Under the pieces are notes generated by a model that was not told where the DNA came from, searched no databases, and worked only from the letters and a program-made list of their open reading frames with translations. 64,000 nucleotides of DNA from sequence record PX104378.1; one strand, given 5' to 3'. The DNA is from a phage. Every line of letters starts with the position of its first letter. Position 1 is the first letter of the stretch. Shown one piece after another: positions 2,270-53,790 of the stretch. Position numbers and translations under genes: made by a program.

Positions 2270-3409
2270 ATGACACAAGAGATAGAATTACGCAATACTG
2301 GAATTAAGTTTGCGCATTTCGACGAAGACTCTGCGACATTTACCAGCATTTCAGAAAATAACTCTGTAATGTATAAACTTGAGGTTAGAGGATCTAATGC
2401 GGATTCTACCAAACCAGCAAGGATTAGATTTAATGGAGTGGAGATCGTTGGCACTGGCTATGAAAATGGCCTAAATTTTAAAGTTCTTACTCCAACTGGA
2501 CAATTACACGAAGAAAAGGTATTCTATGGTCGCGGTGCTGTTTTGGCAATGCGTGATTATCTTTCTTTGCTGAAAGGTGATTATATCATTGCGATGGCAA
2601 CGCATGGAGAATTGTTTGCAGATCCGGTAAGTGATGATGTATTCTCTAAGCTGGGATCTGTATCATTCCCGAATCACATTTTGTTACAGCAAATGCCTCG
2701 TGTATCATATGCAGCAATTTATTCTACGAAAATGGGTAAAATTGTTTGTGAGGGTATGCAAGCGACCCACGGGGAAGGGCAAGATTCATCTATACAAATT
2801 GAGAAAGTCTATGATACTATAGATGATCTTGCTATAACAGGAACACCACAACGATTTTTAGATTATCCGGTTGAGTATGTTAGCGAAGATGCCGAACATT
2901 TCGAGCTAATACAATGGCCTCATGATGAGATCAGCGCACCACTTGAAGATTTTAACATAAAGACAGGTGACAAACTATCAATATCTTTTGAATTGTTCCG
3001 TGATAGTGCCGCAGCCGCAGCCAACGTAACAGCGCGTTTCTATCACAACTACTTCACCGATGGACAATATAAAACTGGTGTTCGATACAATGCCAGCAAA
3101 AAAGATCAATGGGAAAAGTTTGAAGCCGTCTATACCGTACCGGAAGGAGTTGATAGTGTTACCACTGGTTGCGTTAGATATCCAACCAACTCAAATGAAG
3201 GTATTGTTAAAGTTAGAAACATACTAATAACGCCGATCAGTGGAGTTGTCAAAACGACTGGTCCTACTTCCTTTGGTGTTAACGGTGTTAGAACAACTCA
3301 CATTCAGGATAACGGTGATTTTACTAACCCTGTAATGAGTCTTCTTAAACTACCCAGAGACAATAAACATATCACATCCAACAACTTTAAAGAGTTCGAT
3401 GTTGATTAA
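2270..3409 (+). CDS. 35: Long tail fibre hinge protein gp35
   Basis: 379 aa (T4 gp35 372 aa); position between 34 and 36; followed by hairpin+T-run terminator. Confidence 0.55.
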   Translation: MTQEIELRNTGIKFAHFDEDSATFTSISENNSVMYKLEVRGSNADSTKPARIRFNGVEIVGTGYENGLNFKVLTPTGQLHEEKVFYGRGAVLAMRDYLSLLKGDYIIAMATHGELFADPVSDDVFSKLGSVSFPNHILLQQMPRVSYAAIYSTKMGKIVCEGMQATHGEGQDSSIQIEKVYDTIDDLAITGTPQRFLDYPVEYVSEDAEHFELIQWPHDEISAPLEDFNIKTGDKLSISFELFRDSAAAAANVTARFYHNYFTDGQYKTGVRYNASKKDQWEKFEAVYTVPEGVDSVTTGCVRYPTNSNEGIVKVRNILITPISGVVKTTGPTSFGVNGVRTTHIQDNGDFTNPVMSLLKLPRDNKHITSNNFKEFDVD

Positions 3410-3419
3410 CATTTTTAAC

Positions 3420-3450
3420 AAGCCGATCCATGTGGTCGGCTTTATTTTTA
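3420..3450 (+). terminator. Rho-independent terminator after gene 35
   Basis: AAGCCGA-tccatgtgg-TCGGCTT hairpin followed by TATTTTTAT. Confidence 0.65.
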
Positions 3451-3569
3451 TACAGTTGGTTAAAATGTAACCAAAACGAAGAAAGATCTTTAGAATATAG
3501 AAAATTTGTTTCGGTTAAAAATTAGTCAGTGCCTCCGGCACGTCGCGAAGCGATATTTTGTTAACATTC

Positions 3570-3577
3570 TATAAATA
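3570..3577 (+). promoter_or_regulatory. T4-type late promoter (TATAAATA) upstream of gene 36
   Basis: Exact TATAAATA ~35 nt upstream of the gene 36 ATG. Confidence 0.6.
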
Positions 3578-3610
3578 CTCGGAACTATAACTAATTTTTG
3601 AGGTTACTTT

Positions 3611-5101
3611 ATGGCAGATTTGAAACATGGATCTACTGTAGGTGGATCTCCCATTTGGACGCAAGGAAACTTGACGATCCAGCCAGCGGGGGACCAGCTT
3701 TTCTACAAAGGTCATAAAATCTATACCGCTTTTGATAGACCTTCGGCTACCGATTTTGATGCTGTTAGTGCATCCGAAGGTGGCACATTTCAAAAGCAAG
3801 TTCATTTCGAGGAAGGTTTAAGCGTAGGTAGCGCATCGGCTGGAGAAACCAAAAAGAACGGTATCTTTAAAGGCCAGAGCGATGCCGCTAATTTTGACGG
3901 CGTAAGCTGGGGTTTGCATTCATGGAAGTCAATCGGCTTTGTTAATGCCCGTGATGGCGTTATAATGGCGTATATTGACACCACAACGGGCGAATTTAAG
4001 TCTAAAGGGACTATCGAAGGGACAACCATTAAAGACACTGGTCAACGCGTCTATAGCCCTGTTAATAAACCAACGAATAATGATTTGGATTTAGTTTCCC
4101 GTCGCGGTGATACTCTCACAGGAACATATAATTTAAACACTGTCACTGTTAAACTATCGGTTGATTCGAAATTAATTGCAAGGGAACGTGATTTAATTAA
4201 TTTTGATGCGACTAAGATCTATTATGGTAACGTTCTTGACACGTTGGTCTTCCGAAGTAAAGATGAGCCTACCATTTTTGTTAATGGCAAAGAAGGTCGT
4301 TTTTATCACACCAACAATAAACCAACTAAAGCCGATGTTGGACTAGGCAATGTCACCAATGATGCACAGGTTAAACGTGCTGGTGATATTATGGAAGGTA
4401 ACTTGCAAGCGCCTAGAATGTTGGCGACAAACGATCCTGCTGGTCCTAATGAATTGGTTCGTTTGAGCTACTTTGAGAAAAAATCAATGGTAGCAAATCC
4501 AACAATCATTGGAAACGTTGATTGGAACACTCTTATTAATCGCGGTATCTATCGTGTGGAAAATGCTGGATCAGGTACTAATAAACCGTCTGATAGCTAT
4601 TATAACGGCGTTTTGATGGTATATCGCCCAGAAGATGCGGTCGGTACTCGTCGAATTGTTCAGGTTTATTATCCTGAATCTATTGACCATCCGATGTGCT
4701 GGCGTTCGTGTTCTAATGAATCATGGACTGCATGGAACTATGTAGATCACCGTAAATTAGCCGATATTCGCTATGTTAACGTAACTGGCGATACCATGAC
4801 AGGACCGTTAACTGTTCCTGCTGCAAATGGCGTTAGAACAGCTAAAACTAACTATAACGGGGATAACTGTTATGCGGCGTTAAGCGGTGCTGATGGCACT
4901 GCTATGATTCACCGCATTAGTGATATTAAAGGGACCGAAAAGCTGGGGATCACCCACGACTCAAAGGTCGTGTTTTTCCGTTCTAGAAACAATACTCAAA
5001 CCGTGGACCGCTATCAGCTTTATCATGAAGGCAATAAACCTACTCCGGCTGATGTTGGAGCAGTTCCACTTAATGCGGTGATTGATTTTGGTACTTTCTA
5101 A
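3611..5101 (+). CDS. 36: Long tail fibre distal connector gp36
   Basis: N-terminus MADLKHGSTVGGSPIWTQGN matches T4 gp36 N-terminus; TATAAATA late promoter and GAGG RBS upstream; KPTxADVGA fibre motifs. Confidence 0.7.
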   Translation: MADLKHGSTVGGSPIWTQGNLTIQPAGDQLFYKGHKIYTAFDRPSATDFDAVSASEGGTFQKQVHFEEGLSVGSASAGETKKNGIFKGQSDAANFDGVSWGLHSWKSIGFVNARDGVIMAYIDTTTGEFKSKGTIEGTTIKDTGQRVYSPVNKPTNNDLDLVSRRGDTLTGTYNLNTVTVKLSVDSKLIARERDLINFDATKIYYGNVLDTLVFRSKDEPTIFVNGKEGRFYHTNNKPTKADVGLGNVTNDAQVKRAGDIMEGNLQAPRMLATNDPAGPNELVRLSYFEKKSMVANPTIIGNVDWNTLINRGIYRVENAGSGTNKPSDSYYNGVLMVYRPEDAVGTRRIVQVYYPESIDHPMCWRSCSNESWTAWNYVDHRKLADIRYVNVTGDTMTGPLTVPAANGVRTAKTNYNGDNCYAALSGADGTAMIHRISDIKGTEKLGITHDSKVVFFRSRNNTQTVDRYQLYHEGNKPTPADVGAVPLNAVIDFGTF

Positions 5102-26271: not shown

Positions 26272-26775
26272 TTAAATTAAAGAAAATTTGTAAATCTCTA
26301 TCAGGTCGCCGTTACATGCGTAAACTTCCTCGATCTCATCAAGGATCATGGTCGTCCCTGTCTTGTATATGCACTCGCGCTCATCCGCCAACATAGCATA
26401 CAAAGACAGTCGAGTAGTCGGATTGTCATACTCTTTAGACACCACTCGATCAATAGCATGTTCGTAATAATTCATGCAAGGCTTGGTAGGTTTTATTGCA
26501 ATAATCTTTCCTGTTGCATAAACATCGGTTGCAAAGTCCTCTGCTGTTGATTGCAGTGGCGTAAAGCTCATAGGACGCTCTACAACGAAAGAATCGCCTA
26601 CAATTAAGGTATCCAGCTTACGGCCTTCTCTTTTGCTCACACCGCGATACAAGGCTTCATGATGCACTAACCGTTCAGTCTTTTCAATCAATCCATTAAG
26701 GATCGACATATCGATATTTTCTTTAGAGTTCATCACTTCATCAATGATGTTAAGTTCTTCTGGTGTAAATTGCAT
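26272..26775 (-). CDS. Putative mono-ADP-ribosyltransferase (ModA/ModB-like)
   Basis: Candidate R-S-ExE triad (LYRGV ... SFTP ... ADERE); position matches T4 modA/modB; start at ATG (MQFTPEEL) after GGAGG. Confidence 0.5.
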   Translation of the reverse strand: MQFTPEELNIIDEVMNSKENIDMSILNGLIEKTERLVHHEALYRGVSKREGRKLDTLIVGDSFVVERPMSFTPLQSTAEDFATDVYATGKIIAIKPTKPCMNYYEHAIDRVVSKEYDNPTTRLSLYAMLADERECIYKTGTTMILDEIEEVYACNGDLIEIYKFSLI

Positions 26776-26807
26776 AATAAAAAGCCTCCAATCTTTCGAC
26801 GGGAGGC
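26776..26807 (-). terminator. Hairpin after gene 56 whose 3' arm contains the SD of the ART-like gene
   Basis: Minus-strand GCCTCC-cgtcgaaagatt-GGAGGC then TTTTTATT-ATG. Confidence 0.45.
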
Positions 26808-26843
26808 ATAATAAAACCATTATAGAGTAGTGTCAACTAATTT

Positions 26844-27368
26844 TTAGTAGCCGCGTTCTTGACGGGCGAAGTTTTCAGCATTTTTCAGATAGTACAGCTT
26901 GAAGATATCCTTAGCGGTTAAACCTAAGCCCAGCATTTTAATCAGCACAAAATGCCAGATATCGATCAATTCCATCGCAATTTCGGTTTTATCGTCATCT
27001 GACAGATCAGCAAATTTACGCGCTCGTGCTTCGCCGTGGTTCTTCTTCCACACTTTAGTAATTGCGCTTGCATCTTTGCCATTTGACATGCCACCCAGGG
27101 CAACATAAAGTTCTCGTGTCTCGTCGTCGATTGCGTCATCCCATAGCTTCATCCAATCAAGGATCTCCCCGCAAGTTTCCAGCTTATCAGGATGCGGCAC
27201 CCACTCAAATTTATCAGCTAGTGCGACCTGTAAGCCTTTTTGCATATCTAACATTACTTGCAGCGGATCTTTGCCGCTAGTGATTGCCTCGGAATACGCA
27301 ATACCAGCTTTAGACATAGTTTCGTCGCTAACCAGACCAGCACAAGAATTAAATTCTGACATATTCAC
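26844..27368 (-). CDS. 56: dCTP pyrophosphatase gp56 (MazG-like)
   Basis: 174 aa; KDPLQVMLDMQ, HPDKLET, ELIDIWHFVL, IFKLYYLKNAENFARQERGY closely match T4 gp56. Confidence 0.9.
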   Translation of the reverse strand: MNMSEFNSCAGLVSDETMSKAGIAYSEAITSGKDPLQVMLDMQKGLQVALADKFEWVPHPDKLETCGEILDWMKLWDDAIDDETRELYVALGGMSNGKDASAITKVWKKNHGEARARKFADLSDDDKTEIAMELIDIWHFVLIKMLGLGLTAKDIFKLYYLKNAENFARQERGY

Positions 27369-41526: not shown

Positions 41527-42119
41527 TTTAGTTTATGTTCCTCTAAAAATTCTTCAATTTCACCTTGCAGGTCTTCCGCTTGCTGTTCCAGAATATCGCG
41601 AAATTCACCTACAGTCAAGCGGTAATCACATTTCACCAGTCGATGCGGGAGAATATACCCTTTATACATTGTCTCTGACGCTTCCAGGAATACCCCGCTA
41701 TGCATGACAGAGACCCAACCTGTTAGCGTCAATGGGGTATTCGGAAAATAATACTTGCTGGATTGTTTCCACTGGACGAAAGCACCATATACAATCGGAT
41801 TATATTCACCAACCACACTCTTAATAATGGATTCTACTTTGTCTTTTACAAAGTCGCCAATGCCCATAGTCACCATCAACTCTTGTGGGTGAATCACTTT
41901 AAGGTAACGACGGTAGCCGTCATCATACCACAGCTTAACCACTGGCTGACCCCACATTTTAGCAATGCGCGCTTTCAGATAACCATAGATCGGATTCTTG
42001 TAATATGATTGTTTTAGTGTGTATGCGTGCACCAATTCAATAAAATATTCCACTGCTATCGAATCAGGATCAGCCGCGACCATAGTCGTATTCATAATAT
42101 GTTCCTCGTTCAATTTCAT
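41523..42119 (-). CDS. Hypothetical protein
   Basis: 198-aa ORF between 47 and 46. Confidence 0.5.
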   Translation of the reverse strand: MKLNEEHIMNTTMVAADPDSIAVEYFIELVHAYTLKQSYYKNPIYGYLKARIAKMWGQPVVKLWYDDGYRRYLKVIHPQELMVTMGIGDFVKDKVESIIKSVVGEYNPIVYGAFVQWKQSSKYYFPNTPLTLTGWVSVMHSGVFLEASETMYKGYILPHRLVKCDYRLTVGEFRDILEQQAEDLQGEIEEFLEEHKLK

Positions 42120-42387
42120 ATTGTTTCAGGTCTTCTAAAAGTTCATCCACTGCTTGTTTCAGCACATGACGTAGCGTAAAATAATAGCTTTCATCAAATT
42201 CTATTTCCGCGCGAGGAATAGAGCGAAACTTACACTTAACGGTAGTATCAGTGAGTCGCTTTTCGACCATCATCCGAACTTCTTCATGCTCTTTAGAATA
42301 CCATACATCAACGGAGATCCCCTTGCGTCGAGCAAACATAGGCAATGCCGCATTAAATTCCATTACCTTTTGTGCAAGTGTTTTCAT
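42070..42387 (-). CDS. Hypothetical protein
   Basis: 105-aa ORF; start uncertain. Confidence 0.4.
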   Translation of the reverse strand: MKTLAQKVMEFNAALPMFARRKGISVDVWYSKEHEEVRMMVEKRLTDTTVKCKFRSIPRAEIEFDESYYFTLRHVLKQAVDELLEDLKQYEIERGTYYEYDYGRG

Positions 42388-42635
42388 CGTACAGACTCCA
42401 TAGATCCACGGGCAATTACATTCTGGGTAATATCAGCAACCTTACGGGATATGATGTTTGTTAGCCCCTCTTTGGTGATATTTTCACGATCAAATGGGAT
42501 TTCGTCATGAGTCCATAAACCATAGTTAGACCGAAATGATAGCATATACTGACCATCTCGCACAACCTCAAATACATGGATCTTAGTGAATTTCGATAAA
42601 CCTTCGTTGATTTCTTTCAGTGCATTAGTAATCAT
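42384..42635 (-). CDS. Hypothetical protein
   Basis: Track ORF trimmed to ATG after GGAGG (MITNALKEI...); promoter cassette at ~42662-42689. Confidence 0.5.
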   Translation of the reverse strand: MITNALKEINEGLSKFTKIHVFEVVRDGQYMLSFRSNYGLWTHDEIPFDRENITKEGLTNIISRKVADITQNVIARGSMESVR

Positions 42636-42661
42636 AACAACCTCCAATCAATTTTTAGAGA

Positions 42662-42689
42662 GTATAACGGGGATTTCTCCCCGCGTCAA
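42662..42689 (-). promoter_or_regulatory. Early promoter cassette with spacer stem-loop (PeSL-like)
   Basis: TTGACG-c-GGGGAGAAATCCCC-g-TTATAC; just downstream of the gene 47 stop. Confidence 0.5.
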
Positions 42690-43724
42690 CTAACTTTTTG
42701 CGCTATTTACTTCGGCTAAAAGTTCATCAGAAATACGCTTGACCGCCGCAAGTTCATCCGGTTCTAGGTTTTGTTCTTCCAGATATTCGTAAACCATTTG
42801 AATAGTGCTTTTAACCTCAATAACACCAGTTTCCTGTGATGCGCTACTCTCCAGCTTATGGACCACTTTTAGCTTGTGTACAACGGCCTCTAACGCGCTT
42901 TCTAACTTAGTTAACCCATTATCAGCGACCGTTGCGATAAGACGCACACTAAGCCCCTTATAGCGTTCTACATCGATTTTATCATCTGACGGGTAAGTGA
43001 TACGCACATGATAAGTTTTGTCATTCTGGATAAACTCTTTTTTGTGTGTATCGGTATCGAATACCCAAAAACCACGCGGATCGTTTTCGTCACCAGCCGT
43101 TAGTGTGTATGGTGTACCGATATACGTTACGTTACCGCCATCGCTGATAGTATGAAAGTGACCAGAAAACACTTCACGATATTTCTTGAGGAAGTCCGCG
43201 CTATAACCTTCGGATTTTAGCCCTTTATAGAAATAGTAACCAGACAATTCCCAATGGCCTACACAATATTCGCTGAATGAGTTTTGAATAAACTCTAAAA
43301 TCTCTGATTTATTGTCATCACAAAACCACGGGAACAGATCAAATGATACACCATCAAAGGTGACTGTTTCCGGTTTATCAATAACCTTAATGCAATCATA
43401 CTGGCTTAACACTTCACGCGGTGCGTTAGGCTGGATCTTGTTTCGTTTAAACATATCATGATTCCCGACCGTGGTATAACAAGTAATACCAGCCTCTTCC
43501 AGTAGCGGGATAATTTTCGTTCTATTAAAACGCATAGTTGCATGTGTGATTGCTTTTCGGCAATCAAACCAGTCCCCTGTCTGAATCCATGCCTTAATAT
43601 TATGTTTTTTTGAATAATCGACTGCCTTTTTAATAGTATCAAGAATATACTCATGTATCCACGGATCATCGTTGCCGATACCAGTATGCAGATCACCTAA
43701 AAGCAAAATTTTCATATTATACAT
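42690..43724 (-). CDS. 47: Recombination nuclease subunit gp47 (Mre11/SbcD-like)
   Basis: Phosphoesterase motifs (LLLGDLHTG, GDWFD, GNHD, GHFH) and long blocks matching T4 gp47. Confidence 0.9.
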   Translation of the reverse strand: MYNMKILLLGDLHTGIGNDDPWIHEYILDTIKKAVDYSKKHNIKAWIQTGDWFDCRKAITHATMRFNRTKIIPLLEEAGITCYTTVGNHDMFKRNKIQPNAPREVLSQYDCIKVIDKPETVTFDGVSFDLFPWFCDDNKSEILEFIQNSFSEYCVGHWELSGYYFYKGLKSEGYSADFLKKYREVFSGHFHTISDGGNVTYIGTPYTLTAGDENDPRGFWVFDTDTHKKEFIQNDKTYHVRITYPSDDKIDVERYKGLSVRLIATVADNGLTKLESALEAVVHKLKVVHKLESSASQETGVIEVKSTIQMVYEYLEEQNLEPDELAAVKRISDELLAEVNSAKS

Positions 43725-43730
43725 AATCTC

Positions 43731-44285
43731 CTAAAAATTTTTAACACCATATTCACCAAAATAAAGATCAACCGCTTTGTCATAAGCTCTAGCCGCATCT
43801 TCTTCGTTGACATAATACCCAAGAGATATTAGTTTATCATTATTTCGTATTCTTGCAACCCATTTCTTCGTATGTTTATGCCAGCTAACTCCTTTATACT
43901 TGCTTGCTTTATTCTTGTACTTTCCAACGTTACAAGCATTTTTCTTTGCGTCGGACTCTCTAAGATTGCGCGGTGCGTTGTTTAAAGGATTTCGGTCTAT
44001 ATGATCTATAATTTCTGGTTGTGTTCCATGCTCAAGAAACCATACAACACGATGTACATATGGCTTTAAAACCCTCCCATTATCCATAACGATTGCAATT
44101 TGGAGATGATCCTGACTTTTAAAAGTTTTTACTTTATCTCCTGCCTTATAAAACTTTCCTTCGTAATTCTTTCCTCCGGCTCGGCTATTCTTTAAATGAT
44201 AAAGAATACCCTCATCGTCATGTCTATATCTTTCTCTTATAATTCGTTGCGTTTCTTCATCCCACAATTTGGAACGTCTACTCAT
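43731..44285 (-). CDS. HNH homing endonuclease with AP2 DNA-binding domain
   Basis: HNH core HRVVWFLEHG..IDHIDRNPLNNAPRNLR followed by AP2-like YKGVSWHKHTKKWVARI...LGYY..EEDAARAYD. Confidence 0.8.
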   Translation of the reverse strand: MSRRSKLWDEETQRIIRERYRHDDEGILYHLKNSRAGGKNYEGKFYKAGDKVKTFKSQDHLQIAIVMDNGRVLKPYVHRVVWFLEHGTQPEIIDHIDRNPLNNAPRNLRESDAKKNACNVGKYKNKASKYKGVSWHKHTKKWVARIRNNDKLISLGYYVNEEDAARAYDKAVDLYFGEYGVKNF

Positions 44286-44376
44286 AGTCTCTTCCTCTCT
44301 TCGTTTTCGATGCTCTCACTATATCACAGAAAAATAAAAAGGGAAACCCCTTTCAGAGTCTCCCTTATAAAAGCCA

Positions 44377-44664
44377 TTACAGCATACTTAATACCGTTTG
44401 CCGTGTACTAACCCACATAGCAGAAAGCAGTTCTGGCGTGTGTGGCTGTTTGTAGATATCACGCAATTTTCCGATAGCGTAGATATACGCATCACGGTTA
44501 TCATCGATGATAGCTTGTTCAGCCCACCGCTTAAGGCGTGCAATCTCTCGCGAGTTCTTACGCAAGATCTTTTCCGCTTTCTTAGCGGCTTTCGCCTCTA
44601 GTTCTGCTTGTACTTTGTCTACTTCATTCACTACAATCTTGTCATGTTGTTCATCGTAAGTCAT
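44377..44664 (-). CDS. Hypothetical protein
   Basis: 95-aa ORF between 55 and the HNH gene. Confidence 0.5.
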   Translation of the reverse strand: MTYDEQHDKIVVNEVDKVQAELEAKAAKKAEKILRKNSREIARLKRWAEQAIIDDNRDAYIYAIGKLRDIYKQPHTPELLSAMWVSTRQTVLSML

Positions 44665-45456: not shown

Positions 45457-46926
45457 CTATTCCCCATTGCCATTATACTTTCTTTGCTTAGTTATCCACA
45501 CTCTAACCATCTCTACTGATTCACCGTCAGACGGATCAAGAGTTTTTCCTTTTTTCTTCATGCGGTACTTAAATCCGTTAAATCTTGCATTCTCTTGCTC
45601 GTTAAAGTCGAACATCTTTTTAAATGATTTTCGCCCTTTACGCTCACCACATTCTAGCGGAATCATTCGGTCTGTTATTACATTGGCATTAGGTAGAAAC
45701 GTTTTTAGATAATCTACCAACGCCCAATCAGGAACATATAGATTAACATTCTCCTTGCTCTCGTTGTCTCTCAGGTTACAACGCAAACATAATTGAAATG
45801 CTGGTTCCAGATAATCAGACACATGACGCGCTTTCAAAAACTCATTTGTCGGGAGATCACAACTATTAGCAAGACCTTTTAAAATATCAATCTCCCATCG
45901 TTGAGGGTTAAAGCTGAACATCACCGCAACATTTTTATGATGAATGTAAGAGTTAAGACCATAAGACCCGTAAGGTATCCGCTCACCAATACCATTTGTA
46001 CACGCTTCACGGTCCCGATTCACGGTATAAATGAAGTCATCACCACATTCATTTTTAACCATATCAACAAGACGTTCAAAGGTATTGTTTGTTTCTGACT
46101 GGTGACGCGACCAGCGTTCGGAGTCCGTCATAAGGATGATATTAACTCTATCTGTATTTTTATACTCTTTGAAATATAGTCTGGATTCTAGCGCACTCGG
46201 AACAAAATCGCAATTTGCATAGTATCGTAGATACTTCCCGCTATATGTATCAAAGAGATTTGCACATGCTATCGTAACCTTTTTAAAGTCTCCCCACGTA
46301 CCGTGTTTGTTATCGTTCAAGAAAACAATTTTCGACCCATTCTTCCGGTGTCCTTCGTTATGTTTTACCATAACGTTGATTTTCTTCTCTAATAACGCCT
46401 CATAAAGCCCTCTAAGAGAAGAATCGATCATATCAGTACCATCCTTTGCACTTTCTATCTTTTCTTTGATAGCGGCCTTCTCAGAGTCTTTTAGAACTAG
46501 GTTCTGTAGGCATTCCGATTCGTCGGCGATTGGTTCGCAATGCTTCGTGATAAGTTCAAGATTAGACTTAAACGGATACTCATTAAATTCAACCAGTTGA
46601 GGAACTTCATCAATGTAAAGAGCATATTCACTAAACATTTTTGAACGCTCCATATTAGATAACGCTGTATGTGTGATGAATATCACATCAGCACCATCTT
46701 TAACTGATTGCATTATCGACGCTTGCACTGTCTTAAGGCTTCTTAGTCTGGTGCTATCAATCAAGACAGCACGACCGCCCATTCTTTTAAACTTATTGTA
46801 AGATTGTTCACTTAAAACACGAGATGGCGAAGCAATAACCGCTTTTTCTTTTGTCTCTAGGACGTGGGAAAGTATAGCATCAGTTTTCCCCGCCGCTGGC
46901 AATGCGATTAATGTTTCAATCTTCAT
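45457..46926 (-). CDS. P-loop NTPase of unknown function
   Basis: 489 aa; N-terminal Walker A-like ALPAAGKTD, SF2 motif-Ia-like ASPSRVL, Walker B-like LYIDEV; large C-terminal region without recognised motifs. Confidence 0.6.
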   Translation of the reverse strand: MKIETLIALPAAGKTDAILSHVLETKEKAVIASPSRVLSEQSYNKFKRMGGRAVLIDSTRLRSLKTVQASIMQSVKDGADVIFITHTALSNMERSKMFSEYALYIDEVPQLVEFNEYPFKSNLELITKHCEPIADESECLQNLVLKDSEKAAIKEKIESAKDGTDMIDSSLRGLYEALLEKKINVMVKHNEGHRKNGSKIVFLNDNKHGTWGDFKKVTIACANLFDTYSGKYLRYYANCDFVPSALESRLYFKEYKNTDRVNIILMTDSERWSRHQSETNNTFERLVDMVKNECGDDFIYTVNRDREACTNGIGERIPYGSYGLNSYIHHKNVAVMFSFNPQRWEIDILKGLANSCDLPTNEFLKARHVSDYLEPAFQLCLRCNLRDNESKENVNLYVPDWALVDYLKTFLPNANVITDRMIPLECGERKGRKSFKKMFDFNEQENARFNGFKYRMKKKGKTLDPSDGESVEMVRVWITKQRKYNGNGE

Positions 46927-47652: not shown

Positions 47653-48146
47653 TTCTCAGCCTTTAATCTTTCTAGTTCTTCTTCCAGTTCCTTGATCCGT
47701 TGGTCACGTTCAAAGTCACGCTGTAACTTAGTGGCGAATACTCGTTTAAACTGATTGTAATCATCGATTTTAAACACTTCTTCTTCGCCATAGCGACGCA
47801 CAGAAACTTCGTAGTTGTTGAAAAATTGTTCCAACATTGCATCAGTAGTCAGTTCTGACGACACCACTTTAAAATAACGTTCTTCTGATTGCAAAAACCA
47901 GTTGTGCGCGTATTCCCGTACATCATCAACATCTCGACAGGTGTATGTTTTTCCATCAATTTCAATCGCAGAAACATATTCGATATCTGACGCAATTTTT
48001 TCAAAAGCGATAACTTTAAATGTACGGTCACCGATAAAGTCTGCTATTGCATCATTTGCAACACTGGTTGCAAAGGCTTTCCGCGCTCGCTCGTTTTTCC
48101 ACTGATAGGTCATACCAACAACAAACATATTACCATCAACAAACAT
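47649..48146 (-). CDS. Paralog-family protein (WEVGKTY / DGxTY / ERxYF modules)
   Basis: Shares GMTYQWKNERARKAF, IDGKTYTCRDVDD, EERYFKVV and C-terminal coiled coil with neighbours; start set to ATG adjacent to upstream stop. Confidence 0.5.
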   Translation of the reverse strand: MFVDGNMFVVGMTYQWKNERARKAFATSVANDAIADFIGDRTFKVIAFEKIASDIEYVSAIEIDGKTYTCRDVDDVREYAHNWFLQSEERYFKVVSSELTTDAMLEQFFNNYEVSVRRYGEEEVFKIDDYNQFKRVFATKLQRDFERDQRIKELEEELERLKAEK

Positions 48147-48147
48147 A

Positions 48148-48981
48148 TTACCAACCTCGCTCTTTACCAATCAAAAATTCAACTTCACGACGTTTAATGT
48201 CTTCTTGAAGGTCTTTAATCTTCTGGCGATCTTGCATGATTTCATCCATCTTGTCAAGTGCCGCAATGAAATCATCGAAACGTTCAAAGGTTTTACCTTC
48301 ATTTGCTTCGCCAAATTTAACCATTGTCAGGCCATAACGACTACTAAAAAGACGCTTCAACTGTCCAACGACCTTAGAATCATCGTTCACCTTTTCTTCT
48401 GGTTCTTTCACGGTTTCAACTTCACGAAAATATTTTCGTTCAAGCCCAACAAACCACACAGCATCAACATCATCATCAACACCCGCCGAATGAGGATTAA
48501 ATGTTCCACAAACATTATCATTATTGATGTCGATCATAGTAACGAAACCAACAGAATCAACGGAAGATACCGTAAAAGTCTCATCTCCTATCCAATCAGC
48601 AATTTTACGGTTGATATTAGAACAGTGAGAAAACGTCACTTTTGCGTTTACATCCTTCCAAATATAAGTTTTACCAACTTCCCATTTAGGAGGAACTTCT
48701 TCAACTTCACGAAAGAATTTTATATCAAATGGACTAAACAAATATGTTGACGTCCAAATGTCTTTTCCTGTAGCCGTTTTCGCCGTATGATAAACACCGT
48801 CTAGCTCTATTACATTAATCCAACCATCACCTTCGTTCTCGATGATGGTAAATGGCTTGTCACCAATAGCTGCACTGATATCGCTGTTAAGTGGAGAAAG
48901 AACACCTTCTCCGTTAGTAATAAACTCAGTTTTAGCGTTTTCATCTTTCCAAGTGTAAGTTTTACCAATTTCCCATTTCAT
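48148..48981 (-). CDS. Paralog-family protein (internally duplicated)
   Basis: MKWEIGKTYTWKDENAKTEF and internal repeat WEVGKTYIWKDVNAKVTF; FFREVE / YFREVE motifs. Confidence 0.55.
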   Translation of the reverse strand: MKWEIGKTYTWKDENAKTEFITNGEGVLSPLNSDISAAIGDKPFTIIENEGDGWINVIELDGVYHTAKTATGKDIWTSTYLFSPFDIKFFREVEEVPPKWEVGKTYIWKDVNAKVTFSHCSNINRKIADWIGDETFTVSSVDSVGFVTMIDINNDNVCGTFNPHSAGVDDDVDAVWFVGLERKYFREVETVKEPEEKVNDDSKVVGQLKRLFSSRYGLTMVKFGEANEGKTFERFDDFIAALDKMDEIMQDRQKIKDLQEDIKRREVEFLIGKERGW

Positions 48982-51927: not shown

Positions 51928-53790
51928 TTACATATGCTTAACGCGGTTTACCATCTCAGAGTGTTTCCCGTGGTTAAATGGACGCAGATCAACAGATCCA
52001 AGATATCCACTAACGCGACGGATAACATTCATTTTTTCCAGATTATCATTACCGCAATCAGGACAAACAAAACCAAACTCGGTCGCTCTCATTTCCTTAG
52101 TAGATCCGCATACATGACACACATCAGAAGGGGTATTAACACCGAAGTAGTGCAATTTATCCATTGCATAGTCTACTACAGTTTCAAGACCTTTCAGGTT
52201 GTTTTTCATGTCTGGGAACTCAACATAAGAGATCATGCCACCGGACGCCAGCCAGTGATAATCTTTCTCAAAGTCGATTTTCTCAAATGGAGTGACTTTC
52301 CGGTCTACGTCAAGGTGGAATGAGTTGGTGTACCAGTCTTTATCGGTAGCACCCTTAACAATACCAAATTGCTCTCGGTCCAGTCGATTAAATCGATAGC
52401 AAAGGCTCTCGGCTGGCGTACCGTAAAGACTAAACCCAAGTCCGGTTTCGTCCTTCCATTTTTCAGTATAATGACGCAAGATCTTAAGAATATGTTTACC
52501 GTATCGCTGCGCATCTTCCGAATCAAACGGATGAACACCAAACAGGACGCTCAATACCTCATGTAAACCAATATATCCAAGAGAGATACTAGCGCGACCA
52601 TCTTTCAACACTTCCAAAATTTCATCGTTTTGATGAATACGGAAAAATGCACCTTCTGTATACAGCACCGGAGCAACATTGGCTTTAGCCCCTTTTAAAG
52701 CGTCTACGCGACTCATGAGCGCATCAAAGCAAATAGGCATACGATTGGCTAGCTCTTGTTCGAATAGCTCAATTCTGCGCATTACAGACGCTTTACCAGC
52801 ACGACGCGCGGCAATAAGGGCAATACGCGGAAGATTCAGAGTCACAACACCTAAGTTATTACGTCCGTCTAATACTTCTTCGCCTTTCTCATTATGCCAA
52901 ACACCCAGGAAGCTACGACAACCCATCGGGCTAACCGGAACACTAGATCCAGTGATACTACGGTTATTCTTCGCAGAGATATAATCAGGGTAAAGACGCT
53001 TACTAGAACATTCCAATGCAAGTTGCTTAATGTCGTAGTTCGGATCTTCCGGTTTAAGGTTTAATCCTTCTTCTAAGAACATCACCAGCTTAGGAAACAC
53101 CGGAGTGATACCATCTTTACCTAAACCTTTAGTTCGAACGTTCAGGATCGCTTTCTGAATCAGTTTTTCTTCCCAGCTAGTACCCATACCAAAGGTTAAA
53201 GTCACAAAAGGCGTTTGACCATTGGTAGAGAACAAAGTGTTGATCTCATATTCCAACGCCTGATATCCGTCTAACGTTTCTTTTTCTGTCTTCTCTTGTG
53301 CATAGAGAGTATCAGCTTTGATTCCGTAGGTTTCGGCATCAGCAAGGTGTTTATGATATGTTTTCTCAACGTATGGCGCTAAAACCTGATCAATGTTTGC
53401 TATGGTAGTTCCGCCATATTGATGACTTGCCACCTGTGCGATAATTTGAGCGGTTACAGCACATGCAACACCGATTGATTTCGGACTTTCGATTTGTGCA
53501 CTACCCAATTTAAAACCATTCTCTAACATGTCTTTGAGATTAACAAGACAGCAGTTAGTAAACGGCATAGCGGGTGCATAATCCATATCATGATAATGAA
53601 TATCACCGTCTACATGCGCTTTATAGATGTGCTCAGGTAACACGGTTTTAGCAATCTGTTTAGACACAGCGCCAGCAATCAGATCTCGACGTGTCGGGAA
53701 TGTTCGCGCGTCTTTGTTCGCGTTCTCTTTGCTTACTTCGTTTTCTTTACCCGTTGCGATCTCTGTAATGTCTTTGATTAGTTTTTCCAT
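51928..53790 (-). CDS. nrdD: Anaerobic ribonucleoside-triphosphate reductase NrdD
   Basis: 620 aa; C-terminal zinc ribbon CHVCG...CPDCG and glycyl-radical region RVSGYLG; uninterrupted ORF. Confidence 0.9.
   Translation of the reverse strand: MEKLIKDITEIATGKENEVSKENANKDARTFPTRRDLIAGAVSKQIAKTVLPEHIYKAHVDGDIHYHDMDYAPAMPFTNCCLVNLKDMLENGFKLGSAQIESPKSIGVACAVTAQIIAQVASHQYGGTTIANIDQVLAPYVEKTYHKHLADAETYGIKADTLYAQEKTEKETLDGYQALEYEINTLFSTNGQTPFVTLTFGMGTSWEEKLIQKAILNVRTKGLGKDGITPVFPKLVMFLEEGLNLKPEDPNYDIKQLALECSSKRLYPDYISAKNNRSITGSSVPVSPMGCRSFLGVWHNEKGEEVLDGRNNLGVVTLNLPRIALIAARRAGKASVMRRIELFEQELANRMPICFDALMSRVDALKGAKANVAPVLYTEGAFFRIHQNDEILEVLKDGRASISLGYIGLHEVLSVLFGVHPFDSEDAQRYGKHILKILRHYTEKWKDETGLGFSLYGTPAESLCYRFNRLDREQFGIVKGATDKDWYTNSFHLDVDRKVTPFEKIDFEKDYHWLASGGMISYVEFPDMKNNLKGLETVVDYAMDKLHYFGVNTPSDVCHVCGSTKEMRATEFGFVCPDCGNDNLEKMNVIRRVSGYLGSVDLRPFNHGKHSEMVNRVKHM

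Follow-up and report, generated by a model that had tools for sequence, protein, structure and literature searches.

A free-standing HNH-AP2 gene, probably a homing endonuclease gene, inserted precisely at the gene 47 start codon of a Krischvirus genome

INTRODUCTION

Is the HNH-AP2 gene that lies immediately upstream of gene 47 in a T4-related phage a mobile homing element, and, if so, how could it have entered this position while leaving gene 47 translated? We addressed this question in a 64,000-nt stretch of phage DNA (sequence record PX104378.1; hereafter, the window), which belongs to Krischvirus, the RB49-like genus of T4 relatives. Across the segment from gene 47 to gene 55, identity to the window is 98.3% for phage JK32 and 97.9% for phages RB49 and MIZ4/5.

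The presence of an HNH-AP2 gene next to gene 47 is already known, because its RB49 counterpart, ORF040c, appears both in the literature of 2006 and 2010 and in the RB49 annotation. The endonuclease DNA of the window is 100% identical to RB49 positions 26380-26934 (ORF040c, RB49p040, NP_891611.1), and the RefSeq entry for NP_891611.1 carries the labels 'HNH endonuclease' and 'DNA-binding AP2 domain'. Nolan et al. 2006 listed RB49ORF040c among 'putative mobile DNA elements', with matches to AP2 and HNH, as an AP2-HNH homing endonuclease gene (PMC1524935), and the tally of HNH-AP2 homing endonuclease genes by Petrov et al. 2010 gave a single one for RB49, zero for phi-1 and two for JSE (PMC2993671). 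The HNH-AP2 proteins are a recognised homing endonuclease family (PMC10448857, PMC1524935).

The gene in the window does not itself differ from RB49 ORF040c, sharing its DNA, its protein and its place between a-gt.4 and gene 47, whereas the genome around it is another mosaic, with parts that are nearer to JK32 or MIZ4. The consequences for annotation are small, as the gene is already annotated in RB49 and papers have referred to it as a phage AP2-HNH element over the past two decades. What the present analysis adds is the exact junctions of the insertion, its takeover of the gene 47 translation start, a 70-nt candidate target/immunity region and a pair of competing alleles. Our literature search found no cleavage or inheritance data for this protein, or for any HNH-AP2 enzyme of a T4-like phage, and RB49 and Phi1 constitute a ready-made pair for the biochemical characterisation of such an enzyme.

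RESULTS

The gene encodes an HNH-AP2 protein with conserved catalytic residues

The original prediction, made from the sequence alone, described a 184-aa protein with an HNH catalytic core and an AP2 DNA-binding domain directly upstream of gene 47, and all of these features were recovered. The open reading frame is intact in the ORF list and begins with an ATG codon (Table 1). Residues 76-117 score 45.2 bits with the Pfam HNH_3 profile (PF13392), above its cut-off of 24.8, residues 128-171 score 41.0 bits with the Pfam AP2 profile, whose cut-off is 33.3, and the 184-aa protein matches PHROG_99, 'HNH endonuclease', with an E value of 2.5e-50.

Table 1. Coordinates of the features at the gene 47 locus, in window positions (nt, nucleotides of gene 47; aa, residues of the endonuclease).
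Feature	Position	Strand	Evidence
Gene 47, Mre11/SbcD-like recombination nuclease subunit	42690..43715 (or 43724)	(-)	Pfam Metallophos, PHROG_100
Block 2 of the divergent tract, nt 124-202	43514..43592	(-)	SNP tables
Block 1 of the divergent tract, nt 42-111, 16 fixed substitutions; candidate target/immunity region	43605..43674	(-)	SNP tables, 10-genome alignment
570-nt insertion relative to relatives lacking the gene; register ambiguous by 4 nt	43716..44285	(-)	Phi1 and 10-genome alignments
Replacement gene 47 initiation region carried in the insert, TAGGAGATTATGTATAAT, with the native ATG (43715) after it	43716..43733	(-)	sequence, alignment
HNH-AP2 homing endonuclease CDS (probable), 184 aa	43731..44285	(-)	ORF list, Pfam, PHROG, RB49 identity
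AP2 DNA-binding domain (predicted), aa 128-171	43773..43904	(-)	
HNH_3 nuclease core, aa 76-117	43935..44060	(-)	Pfam, homologue alignment
N-terminal region, mostly beta strands, aa 1-72	44070..44285	(-)	
Ancestral gene 47 Shine-Dalgarno region, GAGAGGAAGAG, now serving the endonuclease gene	44289..44299	(-)	alignments, sequence
Terminator-like hairpin and T-run, 3' of a-gt.4	44339..44366	(-)	scan, Phi1 alignment
a-gt.4 homologue (DUF2654), upstream neighbour	44377..44664	(-)	Pfam

We modelled the protein with AlphaFold2, using an alignment of 57 homologues as input, and obtained a model with a pLDDT of 92.4 and a pTM of 0.83. The predicted fold resembles both I-HmuI and the AP2 domains of plants. 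In the model, the N-terminal region and the HNH core superpose on I-HmuI, which is the closest solved nuclease by fold, and the core adopts the beta-beta-alpha-metal arrangement of this solved HNH_3/I-HmuI-like reference. The predicted AP2 domain combines its above-threshold profile match with a three-stranded sheet packed on a helix.

Across the 57 homologues, D94, H95 and N107 are invariant, while H78, N103, L108, R109, N116 and N119 are at least 90% conserved, and the alignment contains the catalytic histidine and the Asp/Asn metal ligands of an HNH nuclease. We take D94, H95 and N116 to be the would-be metal ligands and general base, and the roles of these residues are presumed by analogy with D74, H75 and N96 of I-HmuI. 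CxxC zinc-binding motifs are not apparent when the sequence is read by eye.

Overall, the nuclease of the HNH-AP2 protein looks intact. The reading frame is uninterrupted in all alleles of the gene, which fall into two haplotypes, one shared by the window and RB49 and the other shared by JK32 and MIZ4. The haplotypes differ by six synonymous and two non-synonymous codons, a pattern that suggests purifying selection, though with changes too few to amount to proof. The gene has a GC content of 36.0% and a GC3 of 27%, compared to a window mean GC of 40.6% (sd 2.3) and a GC3 of 37-44% in the neighbouring genes, and by these measures its composition appears foreign to the region. No paralogues of the endonuclease were found in the window; a weak tblastn match at 52789-53109, which falls within nrdD, was rejected as noise.

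The insertion displaces the translation start of gene 47

We mapped the insertion by alignment with Phi1, and with 10 genomes that lack the gene (Phi1 and nine others). ATGA stands at both junctions of the inserted segment, and for this reason the register of the 570 nt is ambiguous by 4 nt. Non-carriers read GGAAGAGACT-ATGA-AAATTTTG, which comprises the ribosome-binding site and the start of gene 47, whereas carriers read GGAAGAGACT-ATGA-GTAGA...TTTTAGGAGATTATGTATAAT-ATGA-AAATTTTG. It follows from these junctions that the ATG of the endonuclease gene lies on the ancestral gene 47 ATG and is served by the gene 47 ribosome-binding site. In carriers, gene 47 is nevertheless intact (341 aa) and equipped with a new ribosome-binding site, TAGGAG, as a precise insertion would leave it. 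The AGGAG of this site overlaps the endonuclease stop codon. Gene 47 has its first in-frame ATG 6 nt away from that stop codon and its native ATG 15 nt away; the corresponding spacings from AGGAG are 3 and 12 nt.

The two in-frame ATGs that the insert gives to gene 47 (window 43713-43724) would yield proteins beginning with either MYNMKIL or MKIL, and annotations vary between them, with the start placed at the native ATG (43715) in RB49 and at the upstream ATG (43724) in JK32 and MIZ4.

On the upstream side, the endonuclease gene is preceded by a-gt.4 and a-gt.5 homologues and by that of the late sigma factor gp55, and downstream the gene 47 product matches PHROG_100, 'SbcD-like', with an E value of 2e-125. 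The terminator-like hairpin is located ~50 nt 5' of the endonuclease ATG and is kept in both carriers and non-carriers; the corresponding hairpin is called a terminator in the annotation of Ec_Makalu_002. No T4-type late promoter (TATAAATA) was found near the endonuclease gene, and a scan for sigma-70 promoters gave nothing above chance. One sigma-70 match, at 43716-43744, was discarded as a useful promoter, being too near the gene 47 ATG. Presumably, the endonuclease gene rides on the transcription that serves gene 47. In the spacer between a-gt.4 and the terminator, a single-base indel (an extra A/T at window position 44369) is confined to the window and GoldenSnicker.

The insertion is sporadic and confined to one site

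Comparing the locus across related phages had been proposed as a check, and the comparison yields a clean insertion at the same nucleotide position in 5 of about 60 Krischvirus records. Specifically, endonuclease DNA is present in 5 of the 59 phage records that match the 47-55 region (two records of RB49, together with JK32, MIZ4 and MIZ5), or in 5 of 61 when phage phiS is included (~8%). The remaining records align over this region as two pieces without the endonuclease gene, while the slot in all five carrier records is the one between a-gt.4 and gene 47. An identical protein is also encoded on 23 public contigs, with the order a-gt.4, endonuclease, gene 47 in 10 of 10 among the matches listed. 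A scan of viral contigs for close relatives returned one distant match (42%) and no new carrier loci. The two distributional hallmarks of a homing gene, sporadic presence or absence at one site and fidelity to that site, were both observed, among records whose flanks at this locus are 96-98% identical.

It had also been argued that the slot differs from that of T4 and that this is consistent with a recent insertion. The first part is true, as T4 carries a-gt.3, a-gt.2, mobB, a-gt and 47.1 between a-gt.4 and gene 47, but the difference is weak evidence of insertion and says little on recency because T4 belongs to another genus with several other genes there; the comparison that counts is the one within the genus. 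The second part stands as far as insertion is concerned, while 'recent' applies in a relative sense only, with haplotypes that are 1.4% apart, which is about the background, and a protein that is spread over so many contigs.

A divergent gene 47 flank is linked to the insert

In the opening ~320 nt of gene 47, identity to the window is 98.5% or higher for all carriers and 84-94% for each non-carrier Krischvirus; the surrounding kilobases are 96-99% identical whatever the carrier status. Between the two groups, dxy reaches its maximum of 0.197 at nt 61-120, compared to a background of 0.015-0.05 that is regained after nt 240. The divergent tract falls into two blocks (Table 1), and all of the fixed differences are in block 1. 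The count for block 1 was obtained from 13 carrier loci and 5 non-carrier loci, and 13 of its sites stay fixed when the comparison is made with 10 non-carriers that include the divergent JSE and SSG23. These changes are mostly at the third positions of consecutive codons, and the amino-acid changes in the gp47 of carriers are G15N, V20I, E33D and E37K. In the fixed changes nearest the insert, CGGTGGCG becomes CGGCAACG at nt 39-46 and GGGTGC becomes GGATAC at nt 55-60. Each of these changes abolishes a GC-rich patch, and 12 of the 16 fixed changes lower GC. Block 2 is present in all carriers and also in the non-carriers Phi1 and GoldenSnicker, both without block 1, which looks like the recombination footprint of a loss or of a partial conversion.

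On the upstream, a-gt.4 side, the SNP tables contain no fixed differences between carriers and non-carriers, and a two-sided co-conversion tract is therefore not visible. Beyond nt ~204 of gene 47, and upstream of the insert, carriers differ among themselves and resemble various non-carriers; therefore, the gene and its ~200-nt flank reside in shuffled backgrounds. As expected when a donor flank travels with a homing gene, the ~200-nt tract accompanies the gene in 13 of 13 carrier loci, and we read it as a donor flank that was probably co-converted with the gene.

Perhaps the differences within the tract also provide immunity to self-cleavage. AP2 domains are reported to favour GC-rich DNA, according to a passage of PMC10448857 that cites Magnani 2004, and it is plausible that the nearest changes (CGGTGGCG to CGGCAACG) destroy a GCC-box-like element recognised by the AP2 domain. 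The loss of such an element is inseparable from the arrival of a plain AT-rich donor flank, because most of the fixed changes lower GC and the endonuclease gene is itself AT-rich; a flank from an AT-rich donor fits the data equally well as an escape from a GC-preferring AP2 domain. Alternatively, immunity could arise from the insertion itself, if it splits a site that spans the junction (intact junction GAGACTATGA/AAATTTTG). Linkage after a single ancestral import could also explain the association without a role in immunity, as the substitutions are just 40-200 nt from the insert.

Divergent mosaic patches without a nearby endonuclease gene exist elsewhere in Krischvirus. At window 41928-42670, which holds small ORFs between genes 46 and 47, Brandy is ~19% divergent and OZ035808 is ~14% divergent in part. 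Window 47671-48165 is a sharp mosaic block at the homologues of RB49p048/p049, with a divergence of 13-20% from RB49, Phi1, JK32 and most Krischvirus and of ~1% from MIZ4; no adjoining endonuclease gene was seen there.

A different endonuclease gene occupies the same insertion point in phiS

In phage phiS (PP449093 gp018; locus 1536-2090), exactly this insertion point is filled by another HNH-AP2 gene, which likewise encodes 184 aa. Its insert reads ATGA, then 574 nt, then ATGA, and includes its own GAGG ribosome-binding site for gene 47. As in the window type, the ancestral ribosome-binding site and ATG of gene 47 are used by the endonuclease gene. The phiS and window proteins are 47% identical overall, with 69% identity in the HNH core, 41% in the N-terminal region and 38% in the AP2 domain. 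Among 61 Krischvirus records, the phiS-type gene is found in phiS alone; it is also found on five metagenomic/SRA contigs, in the same slot in 3 of 3 among the matches listed. The gene 47 5' tract linked to it is a variant of its own that has Gly15Asn, G60A and several of the changes at nt 81-111 in common with the window type. The Gly15Asn substitution (GGTGGC to GGCAAC) is thereby common to two endonuclease lineages.

This comparison of alleles points to an older endonuclease lineage that would have resided upstream of gene 47 in unsampled, more AT-rich phages, with at least two imports into Krischvirus. The DNA-binding parts of the two alleles are far less alike (38-41%) than their nuclease cores (69%), and each allele comes with a gene 47 5' segment of its own type. 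An arms race over a single homing site could be read from this, whereby a newer endonuclease of changed specificity would cut and displace the genomes immunised by the first, and the Gly15Asn change in gp47 would be an escape change common to both; we think this reading rather unlikely. Two independent imports from an unsampled donor lineage fit the two-allele data equally.

DISCUSSION

Intronless homing as the proposed mechanism

Taken together, the locus very probably holds a free-standing HNH-AP2 homing endonuclease gene that was inserted precisely at the gene 47 start codon. The original prediction of a free-standing homing endonuclease draws support, at the level of sequence, from the domains, the site-specific and sporadic insertion and the linked flank, and intronless homing as with T4 MobE appears to be the best-supported reading. 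The insert takes over the ribosome-binding site and ATG of gene 47 and brings a replacement ribosome-binding site and spacer that keep gene 47 translated. When a carrier phage and a non-carrier Krischvirus co-infect one cell, we infer that the enzyme would nick or cut the non-carrier genome, probably near the 5' end of gene 47, in its first ~20-110 nt. Repair by recombination with the carrier template would then transfer the gene and, along with it, as much as ~200 nt of the donor gene 47 5' sequence, and inheritance would become biased. The carrier genome would be spared either through the substitutions in the tract or because the insertion splits the site.

Alternative explanations

Several other explanations would account for parts of these observations. 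The gene could once have served homing, have lost this ability and now be kept by linkage or by a benefit to the phage, for example by cutting co-infecting competitors without propagating itself, or through regulation of the 47-46 operon by the AP2 domain. Its place at the head of the gene 47 cistron, where it holds the ribosome-binding site of gene 47, and its low frequency among isolates would suit such a retained gene, and PhiPA3 offers a documented case of an intron endonuclease that serves phage competition (PMC11620839). We consider this explanation unlikely. The catalytic residues are conserved and the substitutions in the gene are mostly synonymous, the ~200-nt flank is constant in spite of the shuffled backgrounds, and competition and homing can coexist.

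Presence and absence alone give no direction, and the gene could be ancestral to Krischvirus and have been deleted in most lineages rather than inserted in a few. Phi1 and GoldenSnicker, which keep block 2 without the gene, have the appearance expected after a secondary loss or recombinational replacement. The junctions are difficult to reconcile with such a history: non-carriers have an exact, uninterrupted ribosome-binding site and ATG for gene 47, while in carriers this ribosome-binding site and ATGA precede the endonuclease gene, and a second, different ribosome-binding site with ATGA follows it. In addition, the GC3 is foreign to the region, the flank is ~20% divergent where the background is 2-4%, and a different allele is found at the same point. 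Ancestral presence followed by loss is thus very unlikely.

Finally, an HNH nuclease with another role and an incidental position by gene 47 is the least likely explanation. Such roles, including terminase-associated packaging and defence/anti-defence, are described for other phages (PMC5304195, PMC3592412), but here the gene is not near the terminase genes, ~90% of sibling phages do without it, the nearest solved nuclease by predicted fold is a homing endonuclease and zinc-binding motifs were not apparent.

Related systems

The closest parallel for intronless homing at the gene 47 start codon is T4 MobE, a free-standing HNH gene between nrdA and nrdB that is promoterless and relies on upstream transcription (PMC2790892). 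MobE nicks the 5' region of the adjoining nrdB in T2, and flanking markers are co-converted (PMC2790892). The layout is the same as the one we propose for the window gene, although the activity of MobE is demonstrated and that of the window protein is predicted. The two proteins also differ in class, as MobE belongs to the Mob class, with zinc-finger-type DNA binding and no AP2 domain, whereas the window protein has an AP2 domain. With T4 mobB located in the same interval, membership of the Mob type was considered for the window protein and rejected, as BLASTP with MobB gave no significant alignment (best E = 10).

I-HmuI, from phage SPO1 of Bacillus (PDB 1U3E), is the product of a gene inside a group I intron and ends in a helix-turn-helix domain, whereas the window protein is free-standing and has an AP2 domain. 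The plant AP2/ERF proteins TEM1 (7ET4), WRI1 (7WQ5) and AtERF1 (1GCC/2GCC) have the same fold as the C-terminal 58-64 residues of the window protein, with 36-42% identity, but they are transcription factors without a nuclease domain.

Homologues are found in more than 1000 phage records. The proteins '1' and '2' of RB16, that of Klebsiella phage Matisse, the JSE paralogues and the IPA-HNH of ICP1 have the same two-domain architecture as the window protein, yet the HNH-AP2 genes of other T4-like phages and ICP1 are at most ~50% identical to it and occupy other sites. The HNH domains of ICP1 IPA-HNH are too divergent to be recognised by the Pfam HNH_3 profile (PMC10448857). In RB16, two HNH-AP2 genes (locus 781-1311 and 2995-3570) flank gene 46, the partner of gene 47. 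The 46/47-55 neighbourhood of T4-like phages is a repeated host of endonuclease genes, and 46/47 is a recurrent home of the HNH-AP2 class.

Two further observations concern the same neighbourhood. T4 mobB (locus 2886-3680), which lies between a-gt and a-gt.2, is an unrelated HNH gene. In the window, the minus strand at 45457-46926 encodes a conserved protein of 489 aa, whose DEAD/P-loop match is weak (PHROG_2467, function unknown). It lies between genes 55 and 55.2, an interval that holds just small 55.x ORFs in T4; its gene shows ~15% divergence over a 200-nt stretch in some SRA contigs.
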